This document shows, one piece after another, positions 1,389 through 28,716 of a stretch of DNA of 64,000 nucleotides (within the stretch, counting starts at the first letter, position 1; every line of letters begins with the position of its first letter). The position numbers and the translations under genes are program-made. Location of the stretch: positions 99,780 through 163,779 of the forward strand of contig JAZSHY010000014.1 of NCBI GenBank assembly GCA_045533505.1, read 5' to 3'. A model generated the notes under the pieces. That model saw only the letters and a program-made list of their open reading frames with translations. It ran no database searches and was not told the origin of the DNA. This DNA is from Eubacteriales bacterium (GTDB lineage: Bacteria > Bacillota > Clostridia > Oscillospirales > CAG-272).

Positions 1389-2546
1389 GTGACGGTTCAG
1401 GACGGATTTTTCCTGCTTCTTTCGCACGCGCTTTGCGAAAGGGAGCTGACCGAGGAGACACTGGCCGAGCTTCGCACCGTTGACCTCGCCTCCCTGCACA
1501 GGCTTGCCCTCTCGCAGGACCTTGCCCACCTTGTGGGAAGCGCGCTTGACAGCCTGGGGCTCCTCTCGGACGACGGGGCCTCCTCTCTTTTTCAAAGCAG
1601 CATGCTTCAGGCTGCCCTCCGCTGCGAGAGGCAGCGCTACGAATGTGAGCGCATCTATGCCCTCCTTGAGGCAGAGGGGATTGCCTTCCTGCCCCTCAAG
1701 GGTGCCGTCCTCCGTGACCTTTACCCGATACCGTGGTGGAGAACGAGCTGTGACGTGGATATCCTTGTCAGGGAGGAGGAGCTCTCGCGTGCCGCCTCGC
1801 TTCTTTCGGAGAGGCTCGGCTACACCGCCGAGAGGCAAAGGGCCTATCACGACCTTTCGCTCTATGCGGAGAACGGCGTGCACCTTGAGCTGCATTTCAG
1901 CCTTTTGGAAAACGACGCGCGGCTTGACCGCGTGCTCTCGCGCGTTTGGGACTATGCCGCGCCCGTCTGCGAGGGCTCCTCGCGCATGGCGCTCACAAGG
2001 GAATTTCTTCTCTTCCATCAGCTGGCGCATATGGCCTACCACCTTCTCTGCGGCGGCTGCGGCGTGCGTCCCTTTCTGGACGTCTTTTGCCTGCGCGAGA
2101 GGCTCTCACCCGATGCCGAGGCTCTCTCGCCCCTGCTCCGCGAGGCCTCGCTTGAGGATTTCTACCGCGGTGTCCTGTCGCTCCTTTCGGTTTGGCTTCT
2201 CGGCGAGGAGGCAACCCCCTTCACGAACGATGCGCAGCGCTATCTTCTGGAGGGCGGTGTCTACGGCTCGGCCCCCAATGCTATGGCGGTTAGGAGCCGC
2301 GAGGGCAAGGACGGTCTTCGGTACCTGCTCGGGCGGCTCTTTCCCTCCTATACCGAGCTTTCGCACATCTATCCCGTGCTAAGGCGGCACCCATGGCTTA
2401 TGCCCCTTATGACGGTGCGAAGATGGGGAAGCGCCCTCTTTCACGGAGGGCCCCGCCGTCTTTTACGTATGCTGAGGCCGAAGGCCTCCCCCTCCGCCGA
2501 GAAAAAGGAGCGCGCCGAAAGGCTCCTTGCGGAGCTTGGCCTTTAA
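1389..2546 (+). CDS. Uncharacterised nucleotidyltransferase-family protein (NTP_transf_5-like)
   Basis: 385-aa ORF with a GTG start. The central segments SCDVDILV and GVHLELHFSL resemble the family of uncharacterised nucleotidyltransferases often found near polysaccharide loci. Assignment is by motif recall only. Confidence 0.5.
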   Translation: MTVQDGFFLLLSHALCERELTEETLAELRTVDLASLHRLALSQDLAHLVGSALDSLGLLSDDGASSLFQSSMLQAALRCERQRYECERIYALLEAEGIAFLPLKGAVLRDLYPIPWWRTSCDVDILVREEELSRAASLLSERLGYTAERQRAYHDLSLYAENGVHLELHFSLLENDARLDRVLSRVWDYAAPVCEGSSRMALTREFLLFHQLAHMAYHLLCGGCGVRPFLDVFCLRERLSPDAEALSPLLREASLEDFYRGVLSLLSVWLLGEEATPFTNDAQRYLLEGGVYGSAPNAMAVRSREGKDGLRYLLGRLFPSYTELSHIYPVLRRHPWLMPLMTVRRWGSALFHGGPRRLLRMLRPKASPSAEKKERAERLLAELGL

Positions 2547-2556
2547 GCCTGCAAAT

Positions 2557-2598
2557 AAAAAGAGAGCTAACAGCAAAAAGCTGTTAGCTCTCTTTTTC
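2557..2598. terminator. Bidirectional rho-independent terminator between convergent genes
   Basis: Perfect 14-bp stem AGAGAGCTAACAGC / GCTGTTAGCTCTCT with an AAAAA loop. It is flanked by an A-run on the left and a T-run on the right. Confidence 0.8.
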
Positions 2599-2649
2599 TG
2601 TAAGGTCAGCCCCGTTCCGAGGAACAGGGCCGACTGCGCGCGTCAGGCA

Positions 2650-5600
2650 TCAGGAATAGAATTCTCCGAGCTTGACAAGGCGCTCGTATTTGGCCTTCGC
2701 GGAGGCCTCTGCCTTCTCAAAGAGGGCGGCGGCACGCTCAGGGTCCTGCTGAGCAAGGCGGGTGTAACGGGCTTCACCCTTAATGAAGGCCTGATAGTCA
2801 CCCGTCGGGGCCTTCGAATCCAGCGTGAAGGGGTTCTTCCCTTCAGCCTTAAGAGCAGGGTTGTAACGGAAGAGGTGCCAGTAGCCGGCCTCCACCGCCT
2901 TCTTCATTTCGGCCTGGCAGTTCTGCATGCCACCCTTGATGGAGTGCATTTCGCAGGGGGCGTAGCCGATGATGATGGACGGGCCGGGATATGCCTCAGC
3001 CTCGTGCATAGCCTTCAGCGTCTGGTTCGGGTCGGCACCCATGGCAACCTGTGCCACATAGACATAGCCGTAGGACATCGCAATCTGAGCGAGGTCCTTC
3101 TTGCCGATGGCCTTACCCGCGGCGGCAAACTGAGCAACCTGCCCAATCTGCGAGGCCTTCGAGGCCTGGCCGCCCGTGTTCGAATACACCTCGGTATCAA
3201 ACACCATGATGTTCACGTCCTCGCCCGAGGCAAGCACGTGGTCAAGACCGCCGAAGCCGATGTCGTAAGCCCAACCGTCGCCGCCGAAAATCCAAACGCT
3301 CTTCTTGGCGAGGTACTGCTTGTTGGCAAGAATCTTCGCGCGGAGCTCACAGCCGCAGTCGCAGGCCTCAAGAGCCGCGACGAGGGCCTTCGTGGCCTCC
3401 TCGTTGGCCGCACCGTTGTCCTTGGTGGCAAGGTACGCCTCAGCAGCCGCCTTTACCTCCTCGTTCTTCGCGGTGGCAAGGAGCTCCTCTACGTACGCAA
3501 TGGTGCGCTCGCGGAGTGTCTTCTGGCCGAGGTAGATTCCAAGGCCGTGCTCGGCGTTGTCCTCAAAGAGGCTGTTGGCCCAAGCAGGACCGCGCCCGCT
3601 CTCGCGATTGACGGTGTAAGGCGTGGAGGGAGCCGAGCCGCCCCAGATGGAGGAGCAGCCTGTGGCGTTGGAGATATACATTCTCTCGCCGAAGAGCTGC
3701 GTGATAAGACGGGCATACGAGGTCTCGGCACAGCCCGCGCAGGAGCCGGAGAACTCAAGCAGCGGCTGACGGAACTGGCTTCCCTTGATGGTCTTGGTGT
3801 CAAAGAGCTTCTTGTCATCGACGTTGGCCACGCAGTAGTCGAAGTACTTCTGCTCGCCCGACTCTCTCGCCTGGGGAACCATCTCGATGGCCTTCTTGCC
3901 TGTGCCGTCCTTTTCGCCCTTGGCGTTCACGGGGCAGGCCTTGACGCAGAGCGTGCAGCCCATGCAGTCCAGCGGGCTTACGGCCATCGTGAATTTGTAA
4001 GCACCCGACTTGTCGCCGATGACCTTGTCAATCACCTTCATGCCGGCGGGGGCGGCGGCAAGCTCGCTCTCCGAGACGGCGAAGGGACGGATGGTGGCAT
4101 GGGGGCACACGTAGGCGCAATTGTTACACTGAATGCAGTTTTCGGGGTGCCAGGTCGGCACGGTCACAGCCACGCCGCGCTTCTCGTAAGCGGCAGCACC
4201 CTGCGGGAAGGTACCGTCCACATACTTCTCAAAGGCGGAAACAGGGAGGCTGTCACCCTTCATGGAAACGACGGGAAGCACCACTCCGTTGACATAGTCA
4301 ACAAGGTCGGCGCGGGGGCCGGAGACGGCGGGGGCGGCAGGCGTCTCGCCCGCGGTCTTCCAGGACTCGGGCACCGCAACGAGGTGCAGGGCGTCCTTAC
4401 CGCTGTCGATAGCCTTGTGGTTGAGGTCCACAATGTCCTGCCCCTTCTTGAGGTAGGACTTGGTGGCCATATACTTCATATATTCAATGGCCTCGTCAAT
4501 CGGCAGAATCTTGGCAAGAGCGAAGAAGGCCGACTGAAGAATGGTGTTCTTAACCTTGGCGTTGCCGAGGTCAATGGCAAGCTTCGTGGCGTTGATGGTG
4601 TAGAACTTCACACCGTTGTTCGCGATGTAAGACTTGACGCTCGCGGGCAGATGGGCGTCAAGCTCCTCGTCCGTCCACTGGCAGTCAAGCAGGAAGGTAC
4701 CGCCCGGCACCACGTCGGTAACCATGTCGTACTTCTGCAGATACGCCTGGTTGTGGCAAGCCACGAAATCGGCCTTGTTGATGTAATAGGTGGATTTGAT
4801 GGGCGAATCGCCGAAGCGGAGGTGCGAGATGGTGACGCCGCCCGTCTTCTTGGAGTCGTACTGGAAATAGGCCTGAATGTACTTGTCGGTGTGGTCGCCG
4901 ATAATCTTGATGGAGTTCTTGTTGGCACCCACCGTACCGTCGCCGCCAAGGCCCCAGAACTTACAGCTGATGGTGCCTGCGGGGGCGGTAGCGGGGGCAA
5001 CCTTCTCGGGGAGAGAGGTGCCCGTCAGGTCATCGACAATTGCAATGGTGAAGTTGTTCTTCGGTGCTTCGGCGGCAAGGTTCTCGTACACCGCGAAAAT
5101 CGAAGCGGGGGTAGTGTCCTTCGAGCCGAGACCGTAACGGCCACCCACCACGGTGAGACCGCCGCGCCCCTCACGGGCAAGGGCGGCAAGGACGTCAAGA
5201 TAAAGCGGCTCGCCGAGGGAGCCGGGCTCCTTGGTGCGGTCAAGCACGGCAATCTTCTTGGCAGTGGCGGGGATAGCGGCGGCAAGGTGCGCAGACGAGA
5301 AAGGACGGTAGAGGCGAACCTTGACAAGGCCGACCTTCTCACCCCTCGCGTTCATGTAATCGATGACCTCCTCGATGGTATCGCAGACAGAGCCCATCGC
5401 CACAATCACACGCTCGGCGTCGGGTGCGCCGTAATAGTTGAAGAGCTGGTAGTCGGTGCCGAGCTTCGCGTTCACCTTGTGCATGTACTCCTCAACGATA
5501 GCCGGGAAGGCCTCGTAGTAGCGGTTGCAGGCCTCTCTGTGCTGGAAGAAGATGTCACCGTTTTCGGCAGAGCCGCGGAGAACGGGGAATTCGGGATTGA

Positions 5601-6243
5601 GCGAACGGGCACGGAAGGCTGCGACGGCATCGGTGTCAAGCATGTCGCGCAGGTCCTCGTAGTCCCACACCTCAATCTTCTGAATCTCATGCGAGGTACG
5701 GAAGCCGTCAAAGAAGTTAAGGACAGGATCGAGGCCCTTGATGGTGGCAAGGTGAGCCACGGCGCCGAGGGCCATAATCTCCTGGGCGTTGGTTTCTGCC
5801 AGCATGGCATAGCCTGTCTGGCGGCAGGCATACACGTCGGAATGGTCGCCGAAGATGTTAAGAGCATGGCTGGCCACGCAGCGCGCCGAAACGTGAATTA
5901 CGCTCGGCAGAAGCTCACCGGCAATCTTGTACATGTTGGGAATCATGAGAAGAAGGCCCTGAGATGCGGTGTAGGTGGTGGTAAGGGCACCCGCGGCAAG
6001 AGAGCCGTGCACAGCACCCGCGGCACCTGCCTCGGACTGCATCTCGGTCACCTTGACACGGTCACCGAACAGGTTGGTGGCGGGCTTGCCGAACACATTC
6101 TTATTGGCAGCGCTCCAGCTGTCGGTCACCTCTGCCATAGGGCTGGAAGGGGTGATAGGGTAGATGGCCGCTACTTCGGTGAATGCATAGGAAACATGCG
6201 CCGCAGCAGTGTTACCATCCATAGAAAGCTTTTTTCTTTCCAT
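2650..6243 (-). CDS. nifJ: Pyruvate:ferredoxin (flavodoxin) oxidoreductase, single-chain PFOR
   Basis: 1197 aa. The N-terminus is MDGNTAAAHVSYAFTEVAAIYPITPSSPMAE. Two ferredoxin-type motifs are present (CIQCNNCAYVCPH and CMGCTLCVKACP), and the TPP-binding region reads GGDGWAYDIGFGGLDHV. Confidence 0.95.
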   Translation of the reverse strand: MERKKLSMDGNTAAAHVSYAFTEVAAIYPITPSSPMAEVTDSWSAANKNVFGKPATNLFGDRVKVTEMQSEAGAAGAVHGSLAAGALTTTYTASQGLLLMIPNMYKIAGELLPSVIHVSARCVASHALNIFGDHSDVYACRQTGYAMLAETNAQEIMALGAVAHLATIKGLDPVLNFFDGFRTSHEIQKIEVWDYEDLRDMLDTDAVAAFRARSLNPEFPVLRGSAENGDIFFQHREACNRYYEAFPAIVEEYMHKVNAKLGTDYQLFNYYGAPDAERVIVAMGSVCDTIEEVIDYMNARGEKVGLVKVRLYRPFSSAHLAAAIPATAKKIAVLDRTKEPGSLGEPLYLDVLAALAREGRGGLTVVGGRYGLGSKDTTPASIFAVYENLAAEAPKNNFTIAIVDDLTGTSLPEKVAPATAPAGTISCKFWGLGGDGTVGANKNSIKIIGDHTDKYIQAYFQYDSKKTGGVTISHLRFGDSPIKSTYYINKADFVACHNQAYLQKYDMVTDVVPGGTFLLDCQWTDEELDAHLPASVKSYIANNGVKFYTINATKLAIDLGNAKVKNTILQSAFFALAKILPIDEAIEYMKYMATKSYLKKGQDIVDLNHKAIDSGKDALHLVAVPESWKTAGETPAAPAVSGPRADLVDYVNGVVLPVVSMKGDSLPVSAFEKYVDGTFPQGAAAYEKRGVAVTVPTWHPENCIQCNNCAYVCPHATIRPFAVSESELAAAPAGMKVIDKVIGDKSGAYKFTMAVSPLDCMGCTLCVKACPVNAKGEKDGTGKKAIEMVPQARESGEQKYFDYCVANVDDKKLFDTKTIKGSQFRQPLLEFSGSCAGCAETSYARLITQLFGERMYISNATGCSSIWGGSAPSTPYTVNRESGRGPAWANSLFEDNAEHGLGIYLGQKTLRERTIAYVEELLATAKNEEVKAAAEAYLATKDNGAANEEATKALVAALEACDCGCELRAKILANKQYLAKKSVWIFGGDGWAYDIGFGGLDHVLASGEDVNIMVFDTEVYSNTGGQASKASQIGQVAQFAAAGKAIGKKDLAQIAMSYGYVYVAQVAMGADPNQTLKAMHEAEAYPGPSIIIGYAPCEMHSIKGGMQNCQAEMKKAVEAGYWHLFRYNPALKAEGKNPFTLDSKAPTGDYQAFIKGEARYTRLAQQDPERAAALFEKAEASAKAKYERLVKLGEFYS

Positions 6244-6333
6244 GTTGAAATTCCTCCGTTTTTTATCTATATTTCCTATATTTTTGAGAACAAGGACGGG
6301 CGGCTGCGGGCACCTGCGCCCGAGCCATTCATC

Positions 6334-6363
6334 ATTATAACATAAGTCTTTTAAAAAGTAAAG
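6334..6363 (-). promoter_or_regulatory. Putative nifJ promoter (extended -10)
   Basis: The minus strand reads TTTACT-17 nt-TATAAT, with TG directly upstream of the -10 (TGTTATAAT). It sits about 90 nt upstream of the nifJ ATG. Confidence 0.45.
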
Positions 6364-7690: not shown

Positions 7691-7766
7691 GCTGCTATGG
7701 CTCAGTTGGTAGAGCACATCCTTGGTAAGGATGAGGTCATCAGTTCGAATCTGATTAGCAGCTCCA
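7691..7766 (+). tRNA. tRNA-Thr (anticodon GGT), CCA encoded
   Basis: Folded by hand as a 76-nt cloverleaf. The acceptor stem is GCTGCTA/TAGCAGC, the D arm GCTC-AGTTGGTA-GAGC, the anticodon arm CATCC-TTGGTAA-GGATG and the T arm ATCAG-TTCGAAT-CTGAT. It ends in T-CCA. Confidence 0.9.
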
Positions 7767-9820: not shown

Positions 9821-10117
9821 CTGCGGGGGCGGATACGGAGGAAGCTTCGCAGACAAAAATTCGGCGTTTTTCACAAAGAACAGCGGCGGCAAGGGAGGCC
9901 ATACAGGGCGGGGAAGGAGGGGGCGGCAGACAGCATCCTTCTTCCGAAAATCCGTTTTCCGCAAGGCAAAAAGCACCCCTCGCCCTCGCCGCCTTGCGCG
10001 AGGGAGGGCGCCGTGGCGCGGTTGCACGGCTTTTGGTGATACTGCCGAGAAAAAAATTAAAAAGAAAAGAGAAAACACGAAAAATAGACAATAGAAACAA
10101 ATTTAAAAAGAAAAGTG

Positions 10118-10146
10118 TTGACAAAAATGTAAGATTTGAATATAAT
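10118..10146 (+). promoter_or_regulatory. Consensus promoter of the triple-repeat secreted protein gene
   Basis: TTGACA (10118-10123), 17 nt of spacer, then TATAAT (10141-10146). It is embedded in a conspicuously A/T-rich tract of roughly 110 bp. Confidence 0.6.
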
Positions 10147-10227
10147 ATAATATACATAATACACGGATACGGGTGTCGCCCGCGCTTGGCGCCGCCTCCT
10201 GTCCTGTTTTAGAAAAGGAGTATACTT

Positions 10228-13200
10228 ATGAAAAAAAGAGCTCTTTCCCTTCTTCTGCTCGTGGCTTTGGTGATAACGGCCCTGCCGCTTATCGCTCTCC
10301 CCATCGCCGCAGCAGAGCCTGCCTCTCCTCTGGAGGTCTATAACAGCCTCTATGTGCAGGAGGGCTATCAGTACGGCATTGACTTCTTCCCTCTGAACGA
10401 GCACTGGGAGGGCTATTTCGACGCCACCGCCTATCCCCCCTTTGACGAGGCGGTAATCTCGAGAGAAGCCTGGTCCCGCCAGGAGAAGGTGTGGCTTGAC
10501 CAGTTCGCCTTCCATGCCGAGGGGAACGAAACCCACATGTACACCGACAGCATGGCAGCCTCGGGCTACACTGTGGGCGCGGGCTTCCTGACCATCCGCC
10601 AGGGCGACGCCATTGGGGTAGTGTTTGAGAAATTCCCTGCGGCGCCGAGAGCCACTGCCAATGCGACGACAGCCATTACGCATCAGCTGCTTCTTAAGCA
10701 TAACACCCTCCTGAATCAGCACTCCTTTGCGCTTTCGGGTGTTTTGCTTCCCTTCTCGTCTGATGGGACGAAGTATTCATTCAACGACGCCTACAAAATA
10801 CACATGGGCCAGGGGGTGGCTGACGGAGGCCTGGGCATGGAGCCGATAAGCAACGGTAACGCCGGGAAATACGCCTCGACAGCCTCCATGAAGGTGCCCT
10901 TTGAGCTCACCACCGTGATGACCGACACCGTGAACGATGCCGCCTGCTCGTCCTCCGACGCGCCCGCTATTGCGACGCATGACACCATCAGAAACTACAC
11001 GCCTCAGGATGGGATGCTCACAGAGTATGGCGTCTTCAGCGAGGGCGGTCTTCCCTTTGACAACGCGAAGATGGTCATCGGCAAATGGTTGAACGGTGCC
11101 TCCACCCGCGGTATGGACGCGCATGTGTATGCCTACCGTTACTATGACAGAGCCCTTACCGTGGACGAAATGAAGCAGAACCACCTTGCCGACCTTGCCA
11201 AGTGGTTCCGCGTGGACACCACCTACCTCAGCATGCTGACTGCCGACCAGCTCGCCGCCCTTGCCGCCGATGCAGCGATTGTGGCCTGCGGCTTTGAGAC
11301 CGAGACGGTGGGTGACACGGGCCTGACGCCCCGTGAGTACATTGAGAATAAGGCCGAGGGCCTTGCCACGCTGGAGCTCTACAACCGCTTCTACGTGCAG
11401 GACGGCTATCAGTACGGCATTGACTTCTTCCCTCTGAACGAGCACTGGGAGGGCTATACCGCCTTCACCGCCTTCCCCGACACCGCAAGCGCGAACTGGG
11501 TGGCCGAAGAGAAGGCATGGCTTGACCAGTTTGCCTTCCATGCCGATGGCAATACGACAAGGCTCTACACCTACAAGCAAACCTCCGGGAATGCGGCGGG
11601 CTATACGCTCGGGGACGGTTACGTGACGCTCCGCACCGACCTCGCCCCCAACATCGTGCTGCTTGAAAACATGCCTGCGTTTGAAGCCGGTGACTCCGCC
11701 TCGCACCAGACACTTATCAAGCACAACACCAGGATGAACCAGTTTGGCTTTGTCTTCAACGGCCTTGCCATCGGTTATTCGGTCAGCAACGGTAACCTTT
11801 ATTCGGGCACCTCGGTCAGAACCCTTGCAAACCAATCTCTTTCGGTAGAGCCTTATGGGAGCAAGTACAGCACCTACTGCCTATCGGCTCCTATGGGCAC
11901 TCCGTTTGAATGGACGGTTGAATTCAAGGACACCCTGAACGACGATGCAATCAGCACAGGCACGTCGGGTTGGAACACCTCGATACTTCCCACTCATGAC
12001 GAAATCGCTCAGTACACTCCTCAGGCCGGACGCTTCGGCCAGCTTTACGCCTTCGGCGCCGGCGGCTTGACTTTCTCGAACGACACGCGCTTTGCCCACG
12101 GCGGTGAGGCAGACTCGCATCTGTATGCGTACCGTTACTACGACAGACTTCTCTCGCTTGAAGAGATCCGTCAGAACCACCTTGCCGACCTTATCAAGTG
12201 GTACCGCATGGATATTGAGCTGCTGTCGGTTCTTTCGGATGCGGAGCTCGCCGAGATTGCCGCTGACCCACTGGTGATTGCCTGTGCCTTCGATACTGCC
12301 GCCGTGGGTGAGACGGGCAAGTCTCCCAAGGCCTACATCGAAGCCAAGGCTGCCTCCTACCTTGCCAAGGCTGAGGCCGAGGCCTACAATGCCCTTTATG
12401 TGCAGGACGGCTACCAGTACGGCATTGACTTCTTCGCCCTGAACGAAAACTGGGCCGACTTTGTTCCCACGACCTACCCCACCTACTCGAATGACACCGC
12501 TGCCTGGTCTGCGCTTGAGAAGGCATGGCTCGACCAGTTCGCCTTCCACGCCGAGGGGAACGAAACCAAGATTCTCTCCTTTGAAAAGGACTACGAGGCC
12601 TATACGGTAGGCGCGGGCTTCCTGACCATCCGCAGCACCGACGGTATGGCGCTCGTCTTCGAGAGCTTCCCCGCGGCGCCGAGAGCCACCGATAGTGCTA
12701 CGGCAGGCATGTCGTACCAGATGCTTCTCGGTTGGCCGAGTGAAAACGCACTCTGGGGCCAGCGCTCCTTTGCCTTCGGCGGTATCTCCGTCCCGCTTTC
12801 CTCGGACGGAACGAATGTCACCCCCGCTGACAAGAACCTCCTGTGCGGATGGACGGCTGACGACGGAGCGAACCCCTCGGAGCCTTACAGGTACTCTTCC
12901 GACTACTATCATTCCGTTTCCATGAAGGCTCCCTTTGAGCTGACCACCATTCTGAAGGACACGGTAAACGACACCGCAAGCACTAACAGAGACGTCTACA
13001 AGACGCATGACGCCATCACCCATCACACCCCTCAGGACGGGCAATTCTCGGAGTACTTCTCCTCCGGTGACGGCGGCTTCCCGATGAATAACGAGACTAA
13101 CGTTATCGGCAGATGGCAGGATTACAAAACTTCCTCCCAGGCCATGCGTATGAAGCTCTACGCCTTCCGTTACTATGACAGAATGCTGAGCGCGGACGAA

Positions 13201-14001
13201 ATGAAGCAGAACCACCTTGCCGACCTTGCCAAGTGGTTCCGTGCAGACATTGACCTGCTGACAGCCCTTACCGACGAGCAGTTCGCTCAGCTTGCTGCCG
13301 ATCCGCTTGTGATTAACGTTGGCTTTGAGACGCTGACGGTGGGTGACACGGACATGACGCCCAAGGCCTACATTGAGGATAAGGCTGCCGAGATGGTTGC
13401 CGCCAACGAGGCTGCGGCCCCTGCCCTTACCTTCGCGGGCTACCAGGTCAGAATCGACACGGGCTACGCCTCCAACACCTATGCAGGCGTGCGCGCTGTC
13501 TTCGATATCGACACCGCCCTCGTTGCTGAGCTCCTTGAGACCGAGGAGGAGGTTCTCCTTTCGGTGGACATCAAGCGCGATGGCGAAGCCCGTGTGATAC
13601 TCACCATTCTCTACACGCAGGCAGGCGGCACGACTCCCGTTTCGGTCACCAAGACGGTGCTTTCGACGGGTGCCACCACCGCCTACTCCGCCGATAACAT
13701 TATCGAGCGCGAGAATGAGGCGGGCGAGACCGTGACCTCCTTCGTGTACGCCGTCACCTACCAGGGTGACACCGCCACCAAGGAGAATTACGAGATCGAA
13801 TTCTCGTATGCCTACTCTGTGGCAACGGGCTCGGGCCTCACCACCGCAGCTGCCTCTTATGCGGGACACACTCTCTCCGATGTTGTCTCTGAGACCTTCG
13901 GTGAAACGGTTTCCGCCAAGGAGCTTTACACCTACTTCGCAAATCTTCCCGAGTTCGCCGACGATACCCTTGTGAAGGGTGTTGTGGCAGCTTGCCAGTA
14001 A
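10228..14001 (+). CDS. Large secreted protein with three tandem roughly 340-aa modules (possible LamG/concanavalin-like lectin fold) and a unique C-terminal domain
   Basis: The signal peptide is MKKRALSLLLLVALVITALPLIALPIAAA/EP. Each module begins Y-N-x-[LF]-Y-V-Q-[ED]-G-Y-Q-Y-G-I-D-F-F and ends Y-A-[YF]-R-Y-Y-D-R-x-L-[ST]-x-[DE]-E-[MI]-[KR]-Q-N-H-L-A-D-L. I see no LPXTG, SLH or choline-binding anchor. Confidence 0.85.
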   Translation: MKKRALSLLLLVALVITALPLIALPIAAAEPASPLEVYNSLYVQEGYQYGIDFFPLNEHWEGYFDATAYPPFDEAVISREAWSRQEKVWLDQFAFHAEGNETHMYTDSMAASGYTVGAGFLTIRQGDAIGVVFEKFPAAPRATANATTAITHQLLLKHNTLLNQHSFALSGVLLPFSSDGTKYSFNDAYKIHMGQGVADGGLGMEPISNGNAGKYASTASMKVPFELTTVMTDTVNDAACSSSDAPAIATHDTIRNYTPQDGMLTEYGVFSEGGLPFDNAKMVIGKWLNGASTRGMDAHVYAYRYYDRALTVDEMKQNHLADLAKWFRVDTTYLSMLTADQLAALAADAAIVACGFETETVGDTGLTPREYIENKAEGLATLELYNRFYVQDGYQYGIDFFPLNEHWEGYTAFTAFPDTASANWVAEEKAWLDQFAFHADGNTTRLYTYKQTSGNAAGYTLGDGYVTLRTDLAPNIVLLENMPAFEAGDSASHQTLIKHNTRMNQFGFVFNGLAIGYSVSNGNLYSGTSVRTLANQSLSVEPYGSKYSTYCLSAPMGTPFEWTVEFKDTLNDDAISTGTSGWNTSILPTHDEIAQYTPQAGRFGQLYAFGAGGLTFSNDTRFAHGGEADSHLYAYRYYDRLLSLEEIRQNHLADLIKWYRMDIELLSVLSDAELAEIAADPLVIACAFDTAAVGETGKSPKAYIEAKAASYLAKAEAEAYNALYVQDGYQYGIDFFALNENWADFVPTTYPTYSNDTAAWSALEKAWLDQFAFHAEGNETKILSFEKDYEAYTVGAGFLTIRSTDGMALVFESFPAAPRATDSATAGMSYQMLLGWPSENALWGQRSFAFGGISVPLSSDGTNVTPADKNLLCGWTADDGANPSEPYRYSSDYYHSVSMKAPFELTTILKDTVNDTASTNRDVYKTHDAITHHTPQDGQFSEYFSSGDGGFPMNNETNVIGRWQDYKTSSQAMRMKLYAFRYYDRMLSADEMKQNHLADLAKWFRADIDLLTALTDEQFAQLAADPLVINVGFETLTVGDTDMTPKAYIEDKAAEMVAANEAAAPALTFAGYQVRIDTGYASNTYAGVRAVFDIDTALVAELLETEEEVLLSVDIKRDGEARVILTILYTQAGGTTPVSVTKTVLSTGATTAYSADNIIERENEAGETVTSFVYAVTYQGDTATKENYEIEFSYAYSVATGSGLTTAAASYAGHTLSDVVSETFGETVSAKELYTYFANLPEFADDTLVKGVVAACQ
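10333..13400 (+). repeat. Three in-frame tandem repeats of about 1.0 kb (approx. 10333-11370, 11371-12375, 12376-13400)
   Basis: The units are also similar at the DNA level. For example, GGCTATCAGTACGGCATTGACTTCTTCCCTCTGAACGAGCACTGGGAGGGCTAT occurs near 10370 and again near 11405, with a diverged third copy near 12410. Confidence 0.85.
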
Positions 14002-14032
14002 ATTCTGTTCCGCCTCCCTTCGGGGAGACAAA

Positions 14033-14067
14033 GCCTCCGCAGGGCGAAAGCCTTGCGGGGGCTTTTT
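14033..14067 (+). terminator. Terminator of the triple-repeat gene
   Basis: Stem GCCTCCGCAGGGC, loop GAAA, stem GCCTTGCGGGGGC (two G-U pairs), followed by TTTTT. Confidence 0.7.
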
Positions 14068-18156: not shown

Positions 18157-20682
18157 ATGGCAGCTGTGAAGATTACACAAATCGCAAAGGATTTTTCCAA
18201 AAAGCAAAAGGATATTCTTGATTTTCTCGGTGCGCACGGCATTGAGAAAAAAAGCGGAGCCACCCTTACCGAGGTGGAGTTTTCCCTTTTCCTGGAGGCC
18301 TTCACGAGAGAACATCAGCTTGAGAACCTTGACGACTATCTTTCGGGCAAGGCGCGCATTGTAGTTGCCAAGGCAACCGCGCCCGCTACCGAGGAAAAGG
18401 CTCCTGCCACCGAGGAAAAGGCTCCTGCCGCCGAGGAAAAGGCTCCTGCCGCCGAGGAGAAGGCACCCGCCGCCGAGGAGAAGCCGAAGGCTCCCGAAAA
18501 GCCGCGCACCTTCCACACGGGCACGAAGAACCAGACGCCCACAGACCGCTTCAGCCGCTTCCCCGGGCGCGCGCCCGCAGCGGGAGAGCAGAAGAAGCCA
18601 CAGCCCGAGAAGCGCCCTGACCCGCGCCGCGAAAGGCAGCCCATGCCCGCACCCACACAAGAGCGCGGCGGTTACACCGTAACAACCCCCACCGATTACG
18701 CGGCGGCACCCGCACCGCGCACCCGCGTGGTGGATACCCGCACCTCCTCGGTTGACCTCTCGAAATACGACGACTCTCTCGACAAGTACTCGGGCCGCGT
18801 TTCGGACTCGCACCGTGAGAGGCAGAAAATCAAGAAGCAGGACAACCGCACGCAGAACACCAAGCAATCGCGCGAAAAGGAGCGCCTTGCCCAGGAGAAG
18901 CTGCGCCGTCAGCAGTTTGAGCGTGCCAAGAAAAAGCAGCTTGAAATTACCATTCCCGATGAAATTTCGGTAGGGGAGCTGGCCTCACGCCTCAAAAAAA
19001 CAAGTGCCGAGGTTATCAAGCGGCTCATGATGATGGGGGTTATGGCCACCGTCAATCAGAGCATCGACTATGACACCGCCTATCTCATCGCCGATGAAAT
19101 GGGGGCGATTGCCACCCGTGAGGTCGTGGTGACGATTGAGGAGCGCCTCTTTGATGACACCGCCGACACCCCCGAAAGCCTCGTGCCGCGTACCCCTGTT
19201 GTATGCGTGATGGGGCATGTTGACCACGGTAAGACCTCCCTGCTCGACGCCATTCGCCACACCAACGTGACGCGCGGCGAGGCAGGCGGTATCACCCAGG
19301 CCATCGGTGCGTATCAGGTCACGGTCAACAACCAGCTGATTACCTTCCTTGACACCCCCGGGCACGAGGCCTTCACGGCCATGCGTGCGCGCGGTGCTCA
19401 GGCCACCGATATTGCCATTCTCGTGGTAGCCGCCGACGACGGCATTATGCCCCAGACGGTGGAGGCCATCAACCACGCGAAGGCGGCGGGAATCGACATT
19501 ATCGTTGCCATCAATAAGATGGATAAGCCGCAGGCAAACCCCGACCAGGTCATGCAGGAGCTGACAAAGTACGACCTCGTTCCCGAGGAGTGGGGCGGCG
19601 ACGTTATGTGCGTGCCCGTCAGCGCACTGACGGGTATGGGCATTGAAACCCTGCTTGAGGACGTCCTTCTCGTGGCCGAGGTCAAGGAGCTGAAGGCGAA
19701 CCCGAACCGCCGTGCCAAGGGCATTGTCATCGAATCGCGCCTTGACCACGGGCGCGGCCCCGTTGCCACTGTTCTCGTGCAGAACGGTACCCTCTCGGCG
19801 GGCGACATCGTGATTGCGGGCACCTCCGTCGGGCGTGTGCGCGCCATGGTGAATGACCGTGGGCAGCAGCTGAAAACGGCAGGCCCCGGCGTGCCCGTGG
19901 AGATTATCGGTCTTTCCGAGGTTCCCGAGGCGGGTGACGAATTCAATGCCGTTGAGGATGAAAGAATGGCTCGCCAGCTTTCGGAGCAGCGCCGTGCCGA
20001 GGCGAAGGAGGAGCTCTTCCGCCAGAACGCCCGCATGAACCTTGACGACCTCTTTGCCAGAATCGGCGAGGGCGTCAAGAACCTCAACATCATCGTGAAG
20101 GCCGACGTCGCGGGCTCTGCCGAGGCGGTGAAGGCTTCGCTCCTGAAGCTCTCGAACGACGAGGTCAAGGTGTCTATCATTCACACAGCCGTCGGCGGTA
20201 TTACCGAGGGCGATGTGATGCTCGCGCGCGCCTCGGATGCCATCATCGTCGGCTTTGCCGTGCGCCCTGACCGTTCTGCCCTCGAATCGGCAAAGAGAGA
20301 CGGGGTGGACATTCGCACCTACAAGGTCATTTATGAGTGCATTGAGGAAATCGACGCCGCCATGAAGGGCATGCTTGCCCCCACCTTCCGCGAGAATGTG
20401 CTCGGCCACGTAGAGGTGCGCCAGGTCATTCACGTGTCGAAGGCGGGTATGATTGCCGGCTCCTACGTGCTGGACGGCAAGGTCACAAGAAATGCCAAAA
20501 TCCGCGTTGTGCGTGACGGCATTCTCGTGGCAGAGGACGAAATGGCCTCGCTGCGCCGCTTCAAGGACGACGTGCGCGAGGTGGCCGCAGGCTACGAATG
20601 CGGCATTACCCTTGAGAAGTTCCACGACGTCAAGGAGGGTGACATCTTCGAGGCGTACGTGATGGAGGAGGTCTCCCGCTGA
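18157..20682 (+). CDS. infB: Translation initiation factor IF-2
   Basis: 841 aa. The G-domain motifs are [22 protein letters not shown] and NKMD. The N-terminal region is low-complexity and contains [14 protein letters not shown] repeats. Confidence 0.97.
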
Positions 20683-22423: not shown

Positions 22424-24259
22424 ATGGACATTCGTATGCAAAGCAGGGCCGTCACCCTTTTGTACCGCCTTTTTCTGCGCAACCATATCGGCGCGCACCA
22501 GATTCCGTACTTCCCGTCCAAGGATGAGCTCCCCCCCGAGGACACCGCCTCTCTCCCGCTTGTCGAGCCCGAGGTGCTGGGGATTTCCTCCTCGCACGCC
22601 GAGGGCTTCCTCGCCGCCCTGGAAAAATCCCGCTCCGCCTGCCTCCACTGTGTAGCGGCCTCGCGCGCAGGGCAGACCTTTCTTCTCGCCTCAGCGCCCG
22701 CCTACTCCCCCTCGGTACGGCAAACCACCTACTCTGTGGCAAAAACCGTTACGGCCCTTGCCGTGGGTATTCTCGTCTCGGAGGGGAGGCTTGACCTTGA
22801 TACCCCTGCCTACCGCCTGGTGGGCGAGGGCCTGCCGCCCCTGCTTTCGCCTCGCACGAAAAGCATTACGGTGCGCCACCTCCTGACAATGTCCAGCGGC
22901 GTGGTATTCGGTGAGGTAGGCGCGGTTACCGAGGAGATGTGGGTGCGCTCCTTTTTTGAGTCAAGCGTCGCCTTCGCGCCGGGCTCGCGCTTTGCCTACA
23001 ACAGCATGAACACCTATATCCTCTCGGTCATTGTGGAAAGACTGACCGATATGACGCTCTACGACTTCGTAAAAGAGCGGATTTTCGCTCCGCTCGCCAT
23101 TGGCGACACCCTGTGGGAGTGCTGCCCTATGGGGCACACCAAGGGGGGCTGGGGGCTCTATCTCTCGGTGGCAGACTGCCTGAAAATCGGGAACCTCATT
23201 CTCTTTGGCGGCGCGTACGGCGGCAAGCAGGTTGTCCCTCGGGAATGGATACGCCTGATGACCAGAAAGCATATCGACACCCAAGAGGGGCTTGGTGACT
23301 ACAACTACGGCTTCCACATCTGGGTGGCGCGTGACCGCAGCGCGTTTCTTGCCAACGGCATGCTGGGGCAAAATATATGGATTCATCCGAAGAACCGCAT
23401 CGTTGCCGTAACGACAGCGGGTAACTGCGAGCTCTTCCAGACGGGCTCTATGCTGAATATTATCCGCAACTTCTTTGCCACCCCTATGGATGATGCCCCT
23501 CTGAAGCCCGACAGCAAGGCTCTGCTTTCGCTCCGCGCGCACGAGGCCTCCTTCTTCTCGGGGCGGATGTGGACGCACGGGCAGGAGCCGACAAGACCGC
23601 GCCCCGACGGCTCGGTCCCCGAGGAGCTCTTCCGTTTGCTGAAGGAGAAGCCCTACCTTGCCGAGCCGAATAACTTCGGCATTCTCCCCCTCTTTGTTAT
23701 GCTCTCGCAAAACAACCTCGCGGGCGGAATCTCAAAGCTCTCCTTCTCTTCCTCGGAGGAAGGGTATTGGCTTGTCCTCGAGGAGGGCGGGGAGAGCTAC
23801 CGCATTCCCTTCGGCTTTACCGAATACCGCCACACGACTCTCTCGGTCCGCGGCGAGCTTTACCGCATCGCCACCCGCGCCGAATTCTGCGATGACACCG
23901 ACGGCGAGCCGATTCTGAAGCTGGATATCTGCTTCCCCGAAATGGCCTCGGCACGGCGCATGCGTCTCTATTATGCCACCGAAAAGCCCACTCTCATGCT
24001 CTCGGAGCAGCCGGGGTGGCAAATTATGGACGCCCTCACACGCTTTATGCAGTTTGTGCCGCGCGCCAAGCTGCTCAGCAACCTGATACGCTCGCAAATG
24101 GAAAAGGAAATCATGGGCTACCGTATTCGGACGGCCTTCGCTCCCACCCTGCAGCTTGACAGAGACCACATTCCCGACGACGGCGAATTTGCCATCCGCG
24201 AGGGAATGCAAAAGGGGCGCCTCGCCTCGCTCACCGACAAAGAGAGCGACCTCGACTGA
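22424..24259 (+). CDS. Serine hydrolase, beta-lactamase/transpeptidase-like family, with a roughly 250-aa C-terminal extension
   Basis: Start chosen at ATG 22424, with SD GGAGGAGG upstream. An SxxK motif occurs in TYSVAKTVTALAVGILVSEG. The rest of the N-terminal half looks class-C-beta-lactamase-like. I do not recognise the C-terminal half. Confidence 0.7.
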   Translation: MDIRMQSRAVTLLYRLFLRNHIGAHQIPYFPSKDELPPEDTASLPLVEPEVLGISSSHAEGFLAALEKSRSACLHCVAASRAGQTFLLASAPAYSPSVRQTTYSVAKTVTALAVGILVSEGRLDLDTPAYRLVGEGLPPLLSPRTKSITVRHLLTMSSGVVFGEVGAVTEEMWVRSFFESSVAFAPGSRFAYNSMNTYILSVIVERLTDMTLYDFVKERIFAPLAIGDTLWECCPMGHTKGGWGLYLSVADCLKIGNLILFGGAYGGKQVVPREWIRLMTRKHIDTQEGLGDYNYGFHIWVARDRSAFLANGMLGQNIWIHPKNRIVAVTTAGNCELFQTGSMLNIIRNFFATPMDDAPLKPDSKALLSLRAHEASFFSGRMWTHGQEPTRPRPDGSVPEELFRLLKEKPYLAEPNNFGILPLFVMLSQNNLAGGISKLSFSSSEEGYWLVLEEGGESYRIPFGFTEYRHTTLSVRGELYRIATRAEFCDDTDGEPILKLDICFPEMASARRMRLYYATEKPTLMLSEQPGWQIMDALTRFMQFVPRAKLLSNLIRSQMEKEIMGYRIRTAFAPTLQLDRDHIPDDGEFAIREGMQKGRLASLTDKESDLD

Positions 24260-24302
24260 CCGCGGCAACTGCAAGCAAGGCGAGCCCCCTTCAGCTTTCA
24301 AG

Positions 24303-24348
24303 AACCGAAAGGCCTCCTATGGCAGATGCCATAGGAGGCCTTTCGGTT
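24303..24348. repeat. 46-nt perfect palindrome (21-bp arms) between convergent genes
   Basis: AACCGAAAGGCCTCCTATGGC-AGAT-GCCATAGGAGGCCTTTCGGTT. Neither side has a flanking U-tract. Confidence 0.9.
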
Positions 24349-24406
24349 GTGAGCAATTACACCAAGGGATACGCTTCCCCTATATGTCCTCATACGATAA
24401 AGCGTT

Positions 24407-25165
24407 TCAGTATCTCCCCTTATTATAGAATCGCTCTCCCTTTTTGTGCGCAAACAGGTCGCAAATAACAAACACCGCGAAATAAAGCGGAACCGCTATC
24501 AAGGAAATCACGGGATAAGTCAAAAAACCAAGCCCCTCAAACGGAGAATGGATTAAGAACATTGAATTTACATCATACGCTGCCGCCTCGGAAACGAGCG
24601 CGTGGAACACAAGATTGCAATAGCCCCCGATAGCCGCCATTACAAATATTGAAATGATAATGTTTGTCATGTTTCTTTTCACATCTATTTTTATGTAACC
24701 GAAGATGGGAAGCAAAAGAATAGTAAAGAGAAGCGTGGCATGGGCGGTTATGCTTTTGAAATTCTCATAATCGGCAAGCGTGGGGTTCATTATAAAATCG
24801 ACGTTGGCGAACATGCCTACAAGTGTTGAAATGACACCGAACCAAAACAGATAATCAACGAAGAACGAACCGACTCTCGATTTTTTGTTCTTTAAGAGAG
24901 CAAAAATCAGCGCCGACCACATTACCACGTTGCAAGGATATATCGGCAAGATAAGATTAGGAGTCTCAGCCAAATACGCCATCGCATTACCGCCCGACAA
25001 CAGCTTAAAAAGCAACGAGCTGTAATGGAATACGATAGTGAAAATCGAAGAAGCTATAAGAATGACAGCTTGTGTGCGTTCCTTTTTCACATGCTTCTTT
25101 ATAACCCATACCCCAAGCCCGATTAAGGCCATGAGGATACCGTTAAAGATTAGTAGCTTTCCCAT
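24407..25165 (-). CDS. Polytopic membrane protein (YwaF/TIGR02206-like, tentative)
   Basis: 252 aa with about 7 predicted hydrophobic helices. The family call is by weak recall only. A hand count gives 26 G/C out of 60 nt for 24421-24480, well below the roughly 60% counted in infB. Confidence 0.5.
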   Translation of the reverse strand: MGKLLIFNGILMALIGLGVWVIKKHVKKERTQAVILIASSIFTIVFHYSSLLFKLLSGGNAMAYLAETPNLILPIYPCNVVMWSALIFALLKNKKSRVGSFFVDYLFWFGVISTLVGMFANVDFIMNPTLADYENFKSITAHATLLFTILLLPIFGYIKIDVKRNMTNIIISIFVMAAIGGYCNLVFHALVSEAAAYDVNSMFLIHSPFEGLGFLTYPVISLIAVPLYFAVFVICDLFAHKKGERFYNKGRY

Positions 25166-25273
25166 GTTATTGCTTCTTTGTCCTTTCTTTGTGAATTTTT
25201 CCTTGCAGATTGCAGTTTCTCATACGCAATTCCTTGATTGTGCCGCGAAAAGAAGCATTGCTGTTTACCATAC

Positions 25274-25302
25274 ATTATACCATCATTCATAAAATCGTGC
25301 AA
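25274..25302 (-). promoter_or_regulatory. Putative promoter of the membrane-protein gene
   Basis: The minus strand reads TTGCAC, 17 nt of spacer, then TATAAT (TGGTATAAT). It leaves a 5' leader of about 100 nt. Confidence 0.5.
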
Positions 25303-25368
25303 TAGTTTCATGCCAATCCCCCGTCCGGCGCCTGTAGTGTTACGGTTGAAGCGGCACTGTCCGCCCCG

Positions 25369-25397
25369 TTGACTTTTGTGTGGACATGTGTTATAAT
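25369..25397 (+). promoter_or_regulatory. Near-consensus promoter of the GLUG lipoprotein gene
   Basis: TTGACT, 17 nt of spacer, then TATAAT (TGTTATAAT). Confidence 0.55.
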
Positions 25398-25466
25398 TGG
25401 CGCGTAATATGCCCGAAGTTACCCGAAAAGCGGCTGCCCTGTCGCGTGTTTAAGAGGGGATTAAAA

Positions 25467-28400
25467 ATGAGAAAAACAGTATTTTCCATTCTTTTTACAA
25501 TTCTTGTTGTTTCTGTGCTTTTCACGCTCTGCGCCTGCGGCGATGAGGAGATAACCGTGTACGATGCGCAGGTTTATGCTTTCAACGCGTACAGTCCGAA
25601 CAACTATTTGCCAATTTGGTCTGTGTCCGGAAATATGGCGAGCTACCGGACGGGCAGCCAAAGTGACTACTTGTTGGAAGAGTGCTATAGATACGGCTTC
25701 AACTTTGAGGGCATCTTTTCCCAGCCGAACGGGCAGGGGGAGATGTATATGGACAAAACCGGTGTTATTACAAAGAACTTCGAGGAAGCCGCAAATTCAC
25801 AGCACGAGATTGTGCTTTATGCGCATTACACCGCCAACACATTCTCCCTTCCTCTCAGTCATTACGGCGGAGAATCCACCTTCGAGTTTGATTTCTTTTC
25901 AAAGGGAGCTCTTCTCCCCATAACCGACGCTCCCGATCATTACGACCACGTAGGCTGGAGAGTACCGGGAAGCGAGCGGATATACAAGACCTTGCCTGAA
26001 GAAATTATCCTCGCGTATTATACGCAATCCAATACGGAGGCGAGGAAGCCGACTCTTGAGGCGGTGTATCGTGGCTCCTTGAGGAAGGTTTCTTTTAATT
26101 CGTCGAATGATACGCTCGGCGCCAATAGCGTTCAGGTTTATTACGATGAGCCGTTTACTATCCCCGTACCAAGCGCTCCCGCCGGCAAGCTTTTTGCGGG
26201 CTGGGCATACGACGGCGTAAAAATTACCGATAGACACGGCAACAGCCTCGGCAATTACAACTATACCTTTGATATCTCCGTCAGTGCAACGTACGGAGAT
26301 GCGGTAACGGTTTCCTTTGACGTTGAATCGAACGAAGGCTTGGACAAAAGCTCCTGCGAGATTTTAGAAACGGAAACCGCCACTTGCCTCGCTCCATTCC
26401 AGTCGGGCTATCAATTTGACAGAATGGATATTTCATCCGCTAACGGCTCTGTATCCCTGCGCTATGACGAAATTGAAAATACGGAAGCTTCCTGCGGCTC
26501 TCAGCTTGGAGGGATACGAGTTTATTGCACCGTCAATCGGGACGGCTCAAGAACGTTTGAAATCCGCAAAGTAACAACCGATCTTTCAGTTAAAATATAT
26601 TACACACCCGCGCTCACCGTTCTCGAGAATGTCTCGCAGGATGTAGTTGTCGCCGACGGGCTTCCGACGCTTTCATACGGCGAGAAGTTTTCCTTACCCA
26701 TTGCGTATAAGGGCGGCTATCGCTTTGACGGATGGAAAATAGCGGGGACCGATTCTGCTATCACGGACAAGGACGGCCAAGGTCTTGCCGCTTGGAACAA
26801 TCAGGAAAGAACGGTGGGAATAGAGCCCATTTGGGTTGCAGATAATAACGCCCCGTGCGCAATAACCGATTTTGAAAGTCTTTTGGCTATCAAAAACGCC
26901 CCCGGCGGAAAGTACATTCTTCTCAACGACATAACGATCAGCGAGCAGGACTCCGCTCGCTGGACTCCCTTCGCCTTTTCGGGAGTGCTTGACGGGTTCG
27001 GGCACAAAATCAAGGGGCTTACCTTGCATGCCGCAAGCGGCAGCCTTGGTATGTTTACCACCGTTTCCGGCACCGTTAAAAACCTCACGCTTGAGAATGT
27101 TTCCGTAACAAGCCTCTCCAACACCAAGGTAAACGTGGGCGCGCTTTGCGCTACTCTTACGGGTACCGTTGAAAACGTTACCGTGTACGGCTCCGTTAGT
27201 GCGGATAACGCTAATATAGGCGGCATTTGCGGAACGGTAAACGGCGGAAGGATCAAGAGCTCCGAGAATTACGCTTCCGTTACGACGAACACGCTTGAGA
27301 GTGGCGCGGTTGCGGGCGGGATTGCGGCTTATATAACGAACGGCCTGATTAGCGGATGCGAAAACCGCGGAGAAATTACCGCCTTTGCAAACGTAGGCGG
27401 TATAGTGGGGCACGCAGACGGCGCAAACAACGTTACTCAATCCTCGAATTTTGCCAAAATCAATGCCGGCTCGGGCTACGTTGGAGGCTGCGTCGGTAAA
27501 ATCACCGCGTCAAAATTCGGTGACGGTACGGTTATCTTCAACAACCTTTCCAATACCGCGGATATAACAGCGGACGGCTCAAGCGTCGGCGGTATTATAG
27601 GCTATTGCTCGTTCTACGGAGATTGGTGGGAGAGCAAAATCTTTACGCTTGATTTCCACAGGCTCACAAACGCGGGCAACGTTGAGGGCCTATCCCATGT
27701 TGGCGGATGTATTGGCTATGCTACCTCGTCAACGGGTGTTGCCGCCTACCATCCCCAAATTGCAATCAAGCTTACCGACCTTGTAAATACGGGCGATATC
27801 ACCGCCGAAAATATAGCAGGCGGTTGCGTAGGATACGGATACAACAGCGATAACGTATCCAAGATAACCCGCTCCTCGTCAAGCGGAAACATTACAGTAA
27901 AGCATACCGCAGGCGGGATTGCGGGCTATATGACGAAGTTTGCAATCGACAGCTGCGATAACACGGGCACCGTGATACACGCGACGAGCTACTATATCGA
28001 AGACAGCGGATATTACGTAAGAATTGGCGGCTTCGCAGGCGTATGCACGGACATCACGAATTGCAAAAACCTCGCAAGCATTGAATACGCCGAAAAGGGA
28101 TGCTGTATCGGCGGTGTTGCGGGTGTTGTTACCGCAACCATTTCAAAATGCTCAAACGAGGGCAATATAACCGCACCTAAAGCAAGCGCGGTAGGCGGTG
28201 TTGTGGGAAGAATTTCTCACAGCGGAAACTACAACCTTTCAAAGCTGACGAACAGCGGAAATATCACCGCAAACGAAAGCGTTGGCGGAATTATAGGCGC
28301 CTTCAACTGCTATTTCACCTTCAACGACAGCTCAGATCACATGACCGCCATCAGCGAGCTTGCAAGCTCGGGCGACGTTTACTCCTACGGCGGCTTCTGC

Positions 28401-28670: not shown

Positions 28671-28682
28671 GCACATAAAATA

Positions 28683-28716
28683 GGGGACGCGGCTTACCGT
28701 GTCCCCTTCTTCTTTC
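28683..28716 (+). terminator. Terminator of the GLUG lipoprotein gene
   Basis: Stem GGGGACGCGG, loop CTTA, stem CCGTGTCCCC (one G-U pair), followed by TTCTTCTTTC. Confidence 0.7.

Follow-up and report, generated by a model that had tools for sequence, protein, structure and literature searches.

A predicted secreted protein of gut Clostridia with three divergent LamG-like modules, and its recombining family

The present analysis concerns a window of 64,000 nucleotides (nt) from a Eubacteriales bacterium (assembly GCA_045533505.1, contig JAZSHY010000014.1, positions 99,780 to 163,779) and, within it, an open reading frame (ORF) at 10228..14001 of the + strand that encodes a protein of 1257 amino acids (aa). 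Behind a signal peptide, the protein carries three tandem modules and a C-terminal domain (CTD). Each module appears to be a divergent, enlarged jelly roll of the LamG/concanavalin-A (ConA) type, with ~290 aa, a conserved framework, a hypervariable centre, and a family-specific helix that is followed by a three-helix spacer. The reading that we favor, with a probability of roughly 55%, is that of a strongly expressed, Sec-exported, non-catalytic protein, the three LamG-like binding modules of which make it multivalent and lectin- or adhesin-like, with a specificity diversified by recombination.

Module architecture and fold

The protein is laid out as a signal peptide, three modules of 335-347 aa each, and a CTD of 191 aa. 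The features, with positions in the window and the evidence used to delimit them (including custom hidden Markov models, HMMs), are as follows:

10228..10314, +: signal peptide, aa 1-29, MKKRALSLLLLVALVITALPLIALPIAAA followed by E; signal peptidase I cleavage predicted after AAA
10339..11379, +: module 1, aa 38-384 (motifs, module alignment, AlphaFold2 model, Foldseek, custom HMMs for core and tail), composed of a putative divergent LamG/ConA-like jelly roll, ~aa 38-330, and a predicted three-helix spacer, ~aa 331-384
11380..12384, +: module 2, aa 385-719, the most divergent of the three (motifs, alignment, custom HMMs)
11553..12111, +: core cassette of module 2, without a collinear counterpart in a syntenic strain (blastn)
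12385..13425, +: module 3, aa 720-1066 (motifs, alignment, custom HMMs)
13426..13998, +: CTD, aa 1067-1257, predicted as a beta-sandwich and then two terminal helices

The ORF is present as given in a preliminary description of this DNA, which had also proposed three tandem modules with characteristic start and end motifs. When these motifs are searched as regular expressions, the start motif matches exactly three times, at aa 38, 385, and 720 (nt 10339, 11380, and 12385), and the end motif exactly three times, at aa 301-328, 633-660, and 978-1005, the proposed boundaries being right within 2-3 codons. The pairwise identity of the modules is 46-52% in the MAFFT alignment and 48-53% in global alignments, with module 2 at 48-50% to modules 1 and 3. 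The repeats are also visible in the DNA, where a repeat search returns three-copy families with a spacing of 996-1041 nt. The stretch of more than 50 nt that had been noted as nearly identical between modules 1 and 2 is found as an exact run of 54 nt (10363-10416 = 11404-11457), and an exact run of 48 nt is common to modules 1 and 3, starting at 11163 and 13194. Runs of this length are beyond chance, and in modules that share only ~50% of their protein residues they are a sign of gene conversion.

The AlphaFold2 model of module 1, built on an 11-sequence alignment, is mostly beta, with a pTM of 0.80 and a mean pLDDT of 70.8. The last strand spans module residues 261-269 and is followed by a helix at 275-289 and by three more helices, predicted at 302-309, 312-316, and 331-346, in agreement with the helical linker suggested earlier. 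In a Foldseek comparison of this model with the PDB, all of the 50 top matches are ConA-like lectin or accessory domains. They include the lectin domain of trans-sialidase, the CBM40 modules of Vibrio and pneumococcal sialidases, VIP36, and accessory domains of GH43 enzymes, as well as the Hc-N jelly roll of the botulinum and tetanus toxins and a cyanophage tailspike. The model and these matches are compatible with a two-sheet beta-jelly-roll fold.

The connection to LamG in sequence runs through distant relatives of the protein. In three of them, the Pfam family Laminin_G_3 (PF13385) ends where the tail motif of the modules, YxxRxYxRxLxxxE-QNHxAD, begins:

P0087: Laminin_G_3 at 1287-1429, 31.4 bits (gathering score 27.6); tail HMM at 1414-1479
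P0094: Laminin_G_3 at 210-275, E 3e-5; tail HMM at 257-328
P0035: Laminin_G_3 at 1603-1679, E 0.097; tail HMM at 1664-1730

One more Laminin_G_3-positive member was found among 26 further relatives. The canonical LamG module of P0087 starts with VQDGLQFYFD and ends with LYTVRVYNRVLTEDELLVNRFVDVAKFYGLDL, and at the same places the query has VQEGYQYGIDFF and VYAYRYYDRALTVDEMKQNHLADLAKWFRVDT. When the query modules are aligned by hhalign with 77 distant modules, the tail, i.e., the last strand and the helix, is matched with a probability of 99.1% and an E of 5e-19. The default local alignment covers the tail alone, while permissive settings bring in the first strand as well, at position 1. According to these sequence comparisons, the modules are remotely homologous to bona fide LamG_3 domains, the relation being transitive via the family members. 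The likeness of the module end to the last strand of LamG/concanavalin-type domains, which had been offered earlier as a conjecture, is thus borne out by the Laminin_G_3 matches adjoining the tail, by the presence of both end motifs in P0087, and by the ConA-like Foldseek matches.

Compared with Laminin_G_3 itself, the query modules share the first-strand VQxGxxxxxDF and last-strand vYxxRvYnRaLtxxEi motifs, as these occur in the canonical modules of the relatives, and Laminin_G_3 usually serves as a non-catalytic accessory in proteins that bacteria secrete, as the present modules would. However, the query modules have no PF13385 match and, owing to extensive variable insertions in the centre, reach ~290 aa, compared with ~150 aa in the Pfam model. 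Their QNHxADxxKxF helix and three-helix spacer also lie outside the LamG model.

The invariant polar residues of the modules are D15, N20, R267, Y269, Q280, N281, H282, D285, and K288. A further motif, D-x-x-x-D at module residues 196-200 (aa 233-237, DTVND), is near-invariant in 11 of 11 aligned modules, those of the distant relative P0004 included, and has equivalents in modules 2 and 3. By analogy with many LamG/ConA-like domains, this motif could form a candidate metal or ligand site together with the invariant D15 and N20.

For the CTD, the AlphaFold2 model (32-sequence alignment) has a pLDDT of 94.9 and a pTM of 0.89 and consists of eleven strands in a beta-sandwich and two C-terminal helices. 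The domain opens with the conserved motif F-x-G-Y-Q-V-R ... A-G-V-R-A-V-F and is usually located at the extreme C-terminus of the family members. The comparison with PDB structures gave nothing convincing, the best matches (E 2e-3, TM <0.3) being generic Ig-like sandwiches, and there is no convincing relative in BFVD, which holds viral structures, and none in PDB sequences or Pfam. A C-terminal domain of about 200 aa had been described as unique to this protein; the domain is indeed there, but it is not unique, as 37 of 154 family proteins carry it. A role in surface retention or assembly is a guess on our part.

Family and strain variation

The query has zero matches in Pfam and NCBIfam (E ≤ 10) and in PHROGs (E ≤ 0.01), and nothing meaningful was found in PDB sequences for the whole protein, the module profile, the CTD profile, or the canonical LamG module of P0087. 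A word-indexed search of 5.8 billion proteins returned four matches, i.e., the query itself (P0001), an orthologue with 81% identity (P0002), a two-module paralogue located on the same 214-kb contig outside the window (P0003), and a three-module relative of 1771 aa (P0004). When the CTD profile was used in a search of this type, one match was returned. The orphan status suggested by the four-protein result is overturned by an exhaustive HMMER search with a profile of 11 aligned modules, which yields 453 cluster representatives at E ≤ 1e-3, 216 at E ≤ 1e-10, and 71 at E ≤ 1e-30. The earlier statement that the protein belongs to no characterized family is consistent with the missing Pfam, NCBIfam, and PDB matches, and literature searches did not find a description of the family; as an isolated oddity, however, the protein cannot be regarded, given at least 453 clusters.

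The matches listed from the profile search, together with three near-identical cluster members, give the 154 family proteins that were mapped with the module split into three custom HMMs. All 154 carry the tail (last strand, helix, and spacer), in up to 7 mapped copies each with a period of 300-450 aa, while the module core is recognizable in 81. Among the matches listed, the profile search finds 2-8 module stretches per protein. The proteins are large, the largest mapped one having 4512 aa, and are predicted to be secreted. The named members are annotated as "hypothetical protein" and come from gut metagenome-assembled genomes (MAGs) of Clostridia, Eubacteriales, and Oscillospiraceae. Likewise, the 30 loci in GTDB species-representative genomes all belong to MAGs of uncultured Eubacteriales, Clostridia, or Oscillospiraceae, with goat colon, sheep colon, and a Hadza sample among their sources. 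There are several paralogues per genome, often in tandem (tandem or adjacent at L009, L011, L018, L019, L026, and L028), and several MAGs have at least 3-5 family copies, these counts being lower bounds because narrow peptide patterns were scanned.

The close relatives have no Pfam domains. Distant relatives, which share mainly the tail, contain Peptidase_S9/AXE1 and GDSL/SGNH esterases, DUF4886, a right-handed beta-helix with GH141_M, GH20b, BspA-type leucine-rich repeats (LRR), Flg_new, and one type I dockerin (Dockerin_1 in 1 of the 26 further relatives scanned). By analogy, such domain company would be the usual one for accessory carbohydrate- or surface-binding modules. The query itself holds the modules and the CTD alone and is therefore non-catalytic as far as visible.

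The variation within the gene can be followed in a second strain (ENA contig L031), in which the locus is fully syntenic. The neighbouring Fur, rubrerythrin, TrmO, PanK, and NusA proteins are 99-100% identical between the strains (synonymous divergence, dS, 0-0.02; nonsynonymous divergence, dN, ≤0.004). The target protein is 84% identical, with a ~10-fold higher dN than the neighbours, and the divergence is distributed over its parts as follows:

Module 1 vs L031: dN 0.063, dS 0.105
Module 2 vs L031: dN 0.32, dS 0.95
Module 3 vs L031: dN 0.028, dS 0.056
CTD vs L031: dN 0.024, dS 0.014

Between the query and the orthologue, module 3 is 95% identical. The collinear blastn alignment breaks off at window position 11552 and picks up again at 12112, and the orthologue's module 2 resembles that of the window at the ends only. 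It is a mosaic, one part of which is 100% identical to module 1 of the same protein, while another part matches module 1 of the paralogue P0003 at 85-90% identity. The divergence from L031, the replaced core of module 2, and the mosaic orthologue identify the gene as a hotspot of gene conversion and cassette exchange. Recent gene conversion, which had been proposed from the DNA repeats of the window, is accordingly seen both in the exact runs between modules and in the cassette replaced in the syntenic strain. By analogy, variation of this kind would be typical of exposed proteins under diversifying pressure.

Expression, export, and candidate functions

The gene is flanked by its own expression signals:

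10050..10117, +: A-rich stretch directly 5' of the -35 hexamer (sequence reading; also in strain L031), possibly a region similar to an UP element
10118..10146, +: sigma-70-type promoter, TTGACA, 17-nt spacer, TATAAT, matching 12 of 12 consensus positions (promoter scan and reading)
10214..10220, +: ribosome-binding site (RBS) AAAGGAG, 7 nt 5' of the ATG (sequence reading)
14031..14067, +: intrinsic terminator with a 15-bp stem, a GAAA loop, and a U5 tract

The folding energy of the terminator RNA is -31.7 kcal/mol (z-score -4.6), and none of 200 shuffled sequences is as stable. The terminator of the rubrerythrin gene lies 5' of the target gene, which, having its own promoter, RBS, and terminator, forms a monocistronic unit. 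Both the promoter and the RBS are kept in L031. Among the 21 family genes with readable upstream DNA, 12 have a promoter with at least 11 of 12 sigma-70 consensus positions within 250 nt upstream, compared with ~2% of random 250-nt windows, and an RBS of the AAGGAG type precedes nearly all family genes examined.

The signal peptide noted earlier is of the textbook type: the N-terminus reads MKKR, followed by a hydrophobic core and AAA before the E of the mature chain, and there is no other hydrophobic segment in the protein. Sec export and cleavage by signal peptidase I are predicted, which would leave a mature protein of 134.7 kDa that is acidic (pI 4.5), rich in Ala and Thr, and poor in Cys. 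The same type of signal peptide opens 95 of the 148 full-length family representatives, with the consensus MKKRILSLLLLVAM.VTALPL; among these 95, K2 is conserved in 100%, R4 in 96%, S7 in 88%, L10 in 97%, M14 in 75%, and P20 in 88%. Such conservation is unusually high for the signal peptide of proteins that otherwise diverge so strongly, and may reflect either a dedicated targeting route or homogenization of the 5' end by recombination. As stated in the preliminary description, no known wall or membrane anchor is present. There is no LPXTG motif near the C-terminus, which ends in ...VVAACQ, nor any hydrophobic window beyond the signal peptide that could serve as a C-terminal transmembrane segment. 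Pfam (E ≤ 10) finds no SLH, CWB2, or other known cell-wall-binding domain in the query and no dockerin or cohesin.

On the basis of these features, the following mechanism can be proposed. In an uncultured gut bacterium of the Clostridia (Eubacteriales), the gene would be transcribed on its own and at a high level. The precursor would be exported by the Sec route and cleaved by signal peptidase I to give an acidic protein of ~135 kDa without a catalytic domain. The mature protein would resemble three beads on a string, i.e., divergent LamG/ConA-like jelly rolls with small three-helix spacers between them and the CTD at the end, the latter possibly serving for retention at the cell surface or for assembly. 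In each bead, the first strand, the last strand, and the QNHxADxxKxF helix after it would form the conserved framework. The hypervariable central loops would most likely be the binding sites for glycans or other surface ligands, by analogy with modules of the LamG and CBM type and in view of the distant relatives, in which the module occurs together with carbohydrate esterases, beta-helix enzymes, a dockerin, and Flg_new repeats. This would make the protein a multivalent adhesin or a lectin-like capture protein, and its binding specificity would be diversified via gene conversion and cassette exchange, both between modules and between paralogues.

A number of points weigh against this proposal. 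The model of module 1 is moderately confident, with a pLDDT below 50 across much of the central region, and the Foldseek matches are weak (E ~1e-3, TM 0.2-0.3, with probabilities up to 0.99). The centre of the hhalign alignment is unreliable, so that the LamG link is strong for the domain ends only, and the query has no match of its own to Laminin_G_3 or to any other Pfam, NCBIfam, or PDB sequence. The conservation is focused on the domain ends and the post-domain helix and is uninformative on binding; no ligand, binding site, or metal site of the modules was identified. The enzyme-bearing relatives are distant and match the tail alone. Finally, the neighbours in the window, in L031, and at the P0004 locus are housekeeping genes and give no hint of function.

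The best structural matches, CBM40 and the trans-sialidase lectin domain, are beta-sandwich lectin modules on secreted proteins of gut- or host-associated microbes. However, the match to them is weak also in sequence (10-13% identity), the query lacks a catalytic partner domain, and none of the sialic-acid-binding residues is identifiable in it. The protein can also be compared with the non-catalytic polysaccharide-binding proteins and scaffoldins of gut and rumen Clostridia, which are likewise large and secreted, with tandem beta-sandwich modules on linkers; one relative of the query has a type I dockerin, and others have carbohydrate esterase or beta-helix domains. The query differs from scaffoldins in having no cohesin, dockerin, or recognized CBM family.

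We put forward only tentatively a broader view in which the family constitutes a class, hitherto undescribed, of envelope or adhesion proteins that are major and highly expressed in uncultured gut Clostridia. These would have a dedicated and strongly conserved signal peptide, a new CTD of the beta-sandwich/helix type for surface retention or assembly, and antigenic or specificity variation by cassette exchange, both among modules and among paralogues, under pressure from phages or host IgA.

The main rival reading, which we consider less likely, is that the protein is an S-layer-like or other major structural protein of the envelope. In such a case, the family would be a set of paralogous envelope proteins, the shared export signal would be combined with a conserved tail, spacer, or CTD for anchoring and assembly, and the exposed cores would vary under phage or immune pressure, a logic like that of the Clostridioides difficile CWP family. 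SlpA and the CWPs of C. difficile form a paralogous surface-protein family with a shared export and anchor part and variable exposed parts. The present family resembles them in its several copies per genome, strong promoters, conserved N-terminal signal and shared module, variable cores, and strain-level cassette variation. The monocistronic gene with a perfect promoter, a strong RBS, and a strong terminator, which is a family-wide trait, would fit a major structural protein, and so would the large size, acidity, and Ala/Thr-rich, Cys-poor composition of the mature chain. The paralogues, often in tandem, the cassette replacement and high dN between otherwise near-identical strains, the strongly conserved signal peptide, and the shared CTD can also be accommodated. 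However, the SLH, CWB2, and other known S-layer anchoring domains are absent from the query (Pfam), its repeat unit is LamG-like, and its surface localization is putative. Moreover, the relatives fused to esterases, beta-helices, and a dockerin look like carriers of accessory binding modules rather than lattice subunits. Being found in 37 of the 154 family proteins only, the CTD cannot be a universal anchor, and these organisms are not known to have an S-layer.

It is considerably harder to view the modules as ConA-fold enzymes, i.e., jelly rolls of, for example, the glucanase or polysaccharide-lyase type, in which case the protein would be a carbohydrate-active enzyme with three catalytic units. 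Glycoside hydrolases and lyases do occur in the ConA-like superfamily, some of the Foldseek matches are domains of glycoside hydrolases such as GH43, and the modules have the nine invariant polar residues given above. These residues, however, are located in the first strand, the last strand, and the post-domain helix and not in a cleft-forming central sheet, the central region, where a cleft would lie, being the least conserved part. In the solved structures, the Foldseek matches fall on lectin or accessory domains rather than on catalytic ones, the Pfam link leads to the non-catalytic Laminin_G_3, and the relatives pair the module with separate catalytic domains.

An origin from a phage or a toxin, as a receptor-binding or tail-fibre-like protein or as a toxin with an Hc-N-like receptor-binding jelly roll, is hardly credible: the tailspike and Hc-N matches and the variability of the gene between strains would suit it, but the structural likeness is at the level of the generic ConA-like fold only, Pfam shows no protease, translocation, or other toxin domains, the locus is syntenic and stable amid housekeeping genes in two strains, the P0004 gene is also surrounded by housekeeping genes, and a phage origin is rejected by the absence of relatives in 2.9 million viral contigs and of a PHROGs match.

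Returning to the non-catalytic binding protein as the favored reading, tandem modules of the LamG type in large secreted Firmicute proteins are already known, and the protein does not represent a new kind of biological system. What is new is a divergent subfamily of at least 453 clusters that today's Pfam and NCBIfam models miss, together with its diagnostic tail helix and spacer, a CTD without a solved structural relative, and clear cassette-exchange dynamics. In this way, ~450 clusters of very large secreted proteins that were essentially unannotated gain a structural identity in terms of LamG-like modules, the diagnostic tail helix and spacer, and the CTD. Among the surface-exposed proteins of these organisms, the family members probably rank with those that are expressed most highly and evolve fastest, which makes them candidate determinants of attachment to glycans or the host, of phage susceptibility, and of immune recognition. 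The family would merit new models of the Pfam type for the module tail with spacer and for the CTD.

Neighbouring genes

Upstream of the target gene are the genes of PFOR, TrpRS, a Crp-family regulator, Fur, and rubrerythrin, and downstream those of TrmO, PanK, NusA, and, farther away, IF-2. The P0004 gene likewise stands alone amid housekeeping genes. The PFOR gene, at 2650-6243 on the - strand, encodes 1197 aa with POR_N, POR, PFOR_II, EKR, Fer4, and TPP_enzyme_C domains. A + strand ORF at 2527-6345 (1272 aa, Pfam-negative) was considered as a second family member and rejected, as it is the shadow of this gene.

IF-2 (18157-20682) is 93% identical to its counterpart in L031, below the 99-100% of the other neighbours, which probably reflects its variable N-terminal region. 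The named relatives of the window's IF-2 are at most 67% identical to it, and all are MAGs labelled "Clostridia" or "Eubacteriales bacterium". The tRNA genes at 7691-7763 (+), 28981-29053 (-), and 29073-29146 (-) are the sole Rfam matches at the gathering threshold in the window, rRNA being absent.

The GC content is 0.47-0.51 at 24000-28700, compared with ~0.60 elsewhere in the window. An ORF at 25380-28670 (+) encodes ~1070 aa with a lipoprotein-like signal, MRKTVFSILFTILVVSVLFTLCAC, and has a sub-threshold Flg_new match only. It was rejected as a member of the LamG-tail family, to which it does not belong. Its product is probably another large surface protein, and the ORF has possibly been acquired horizontally.

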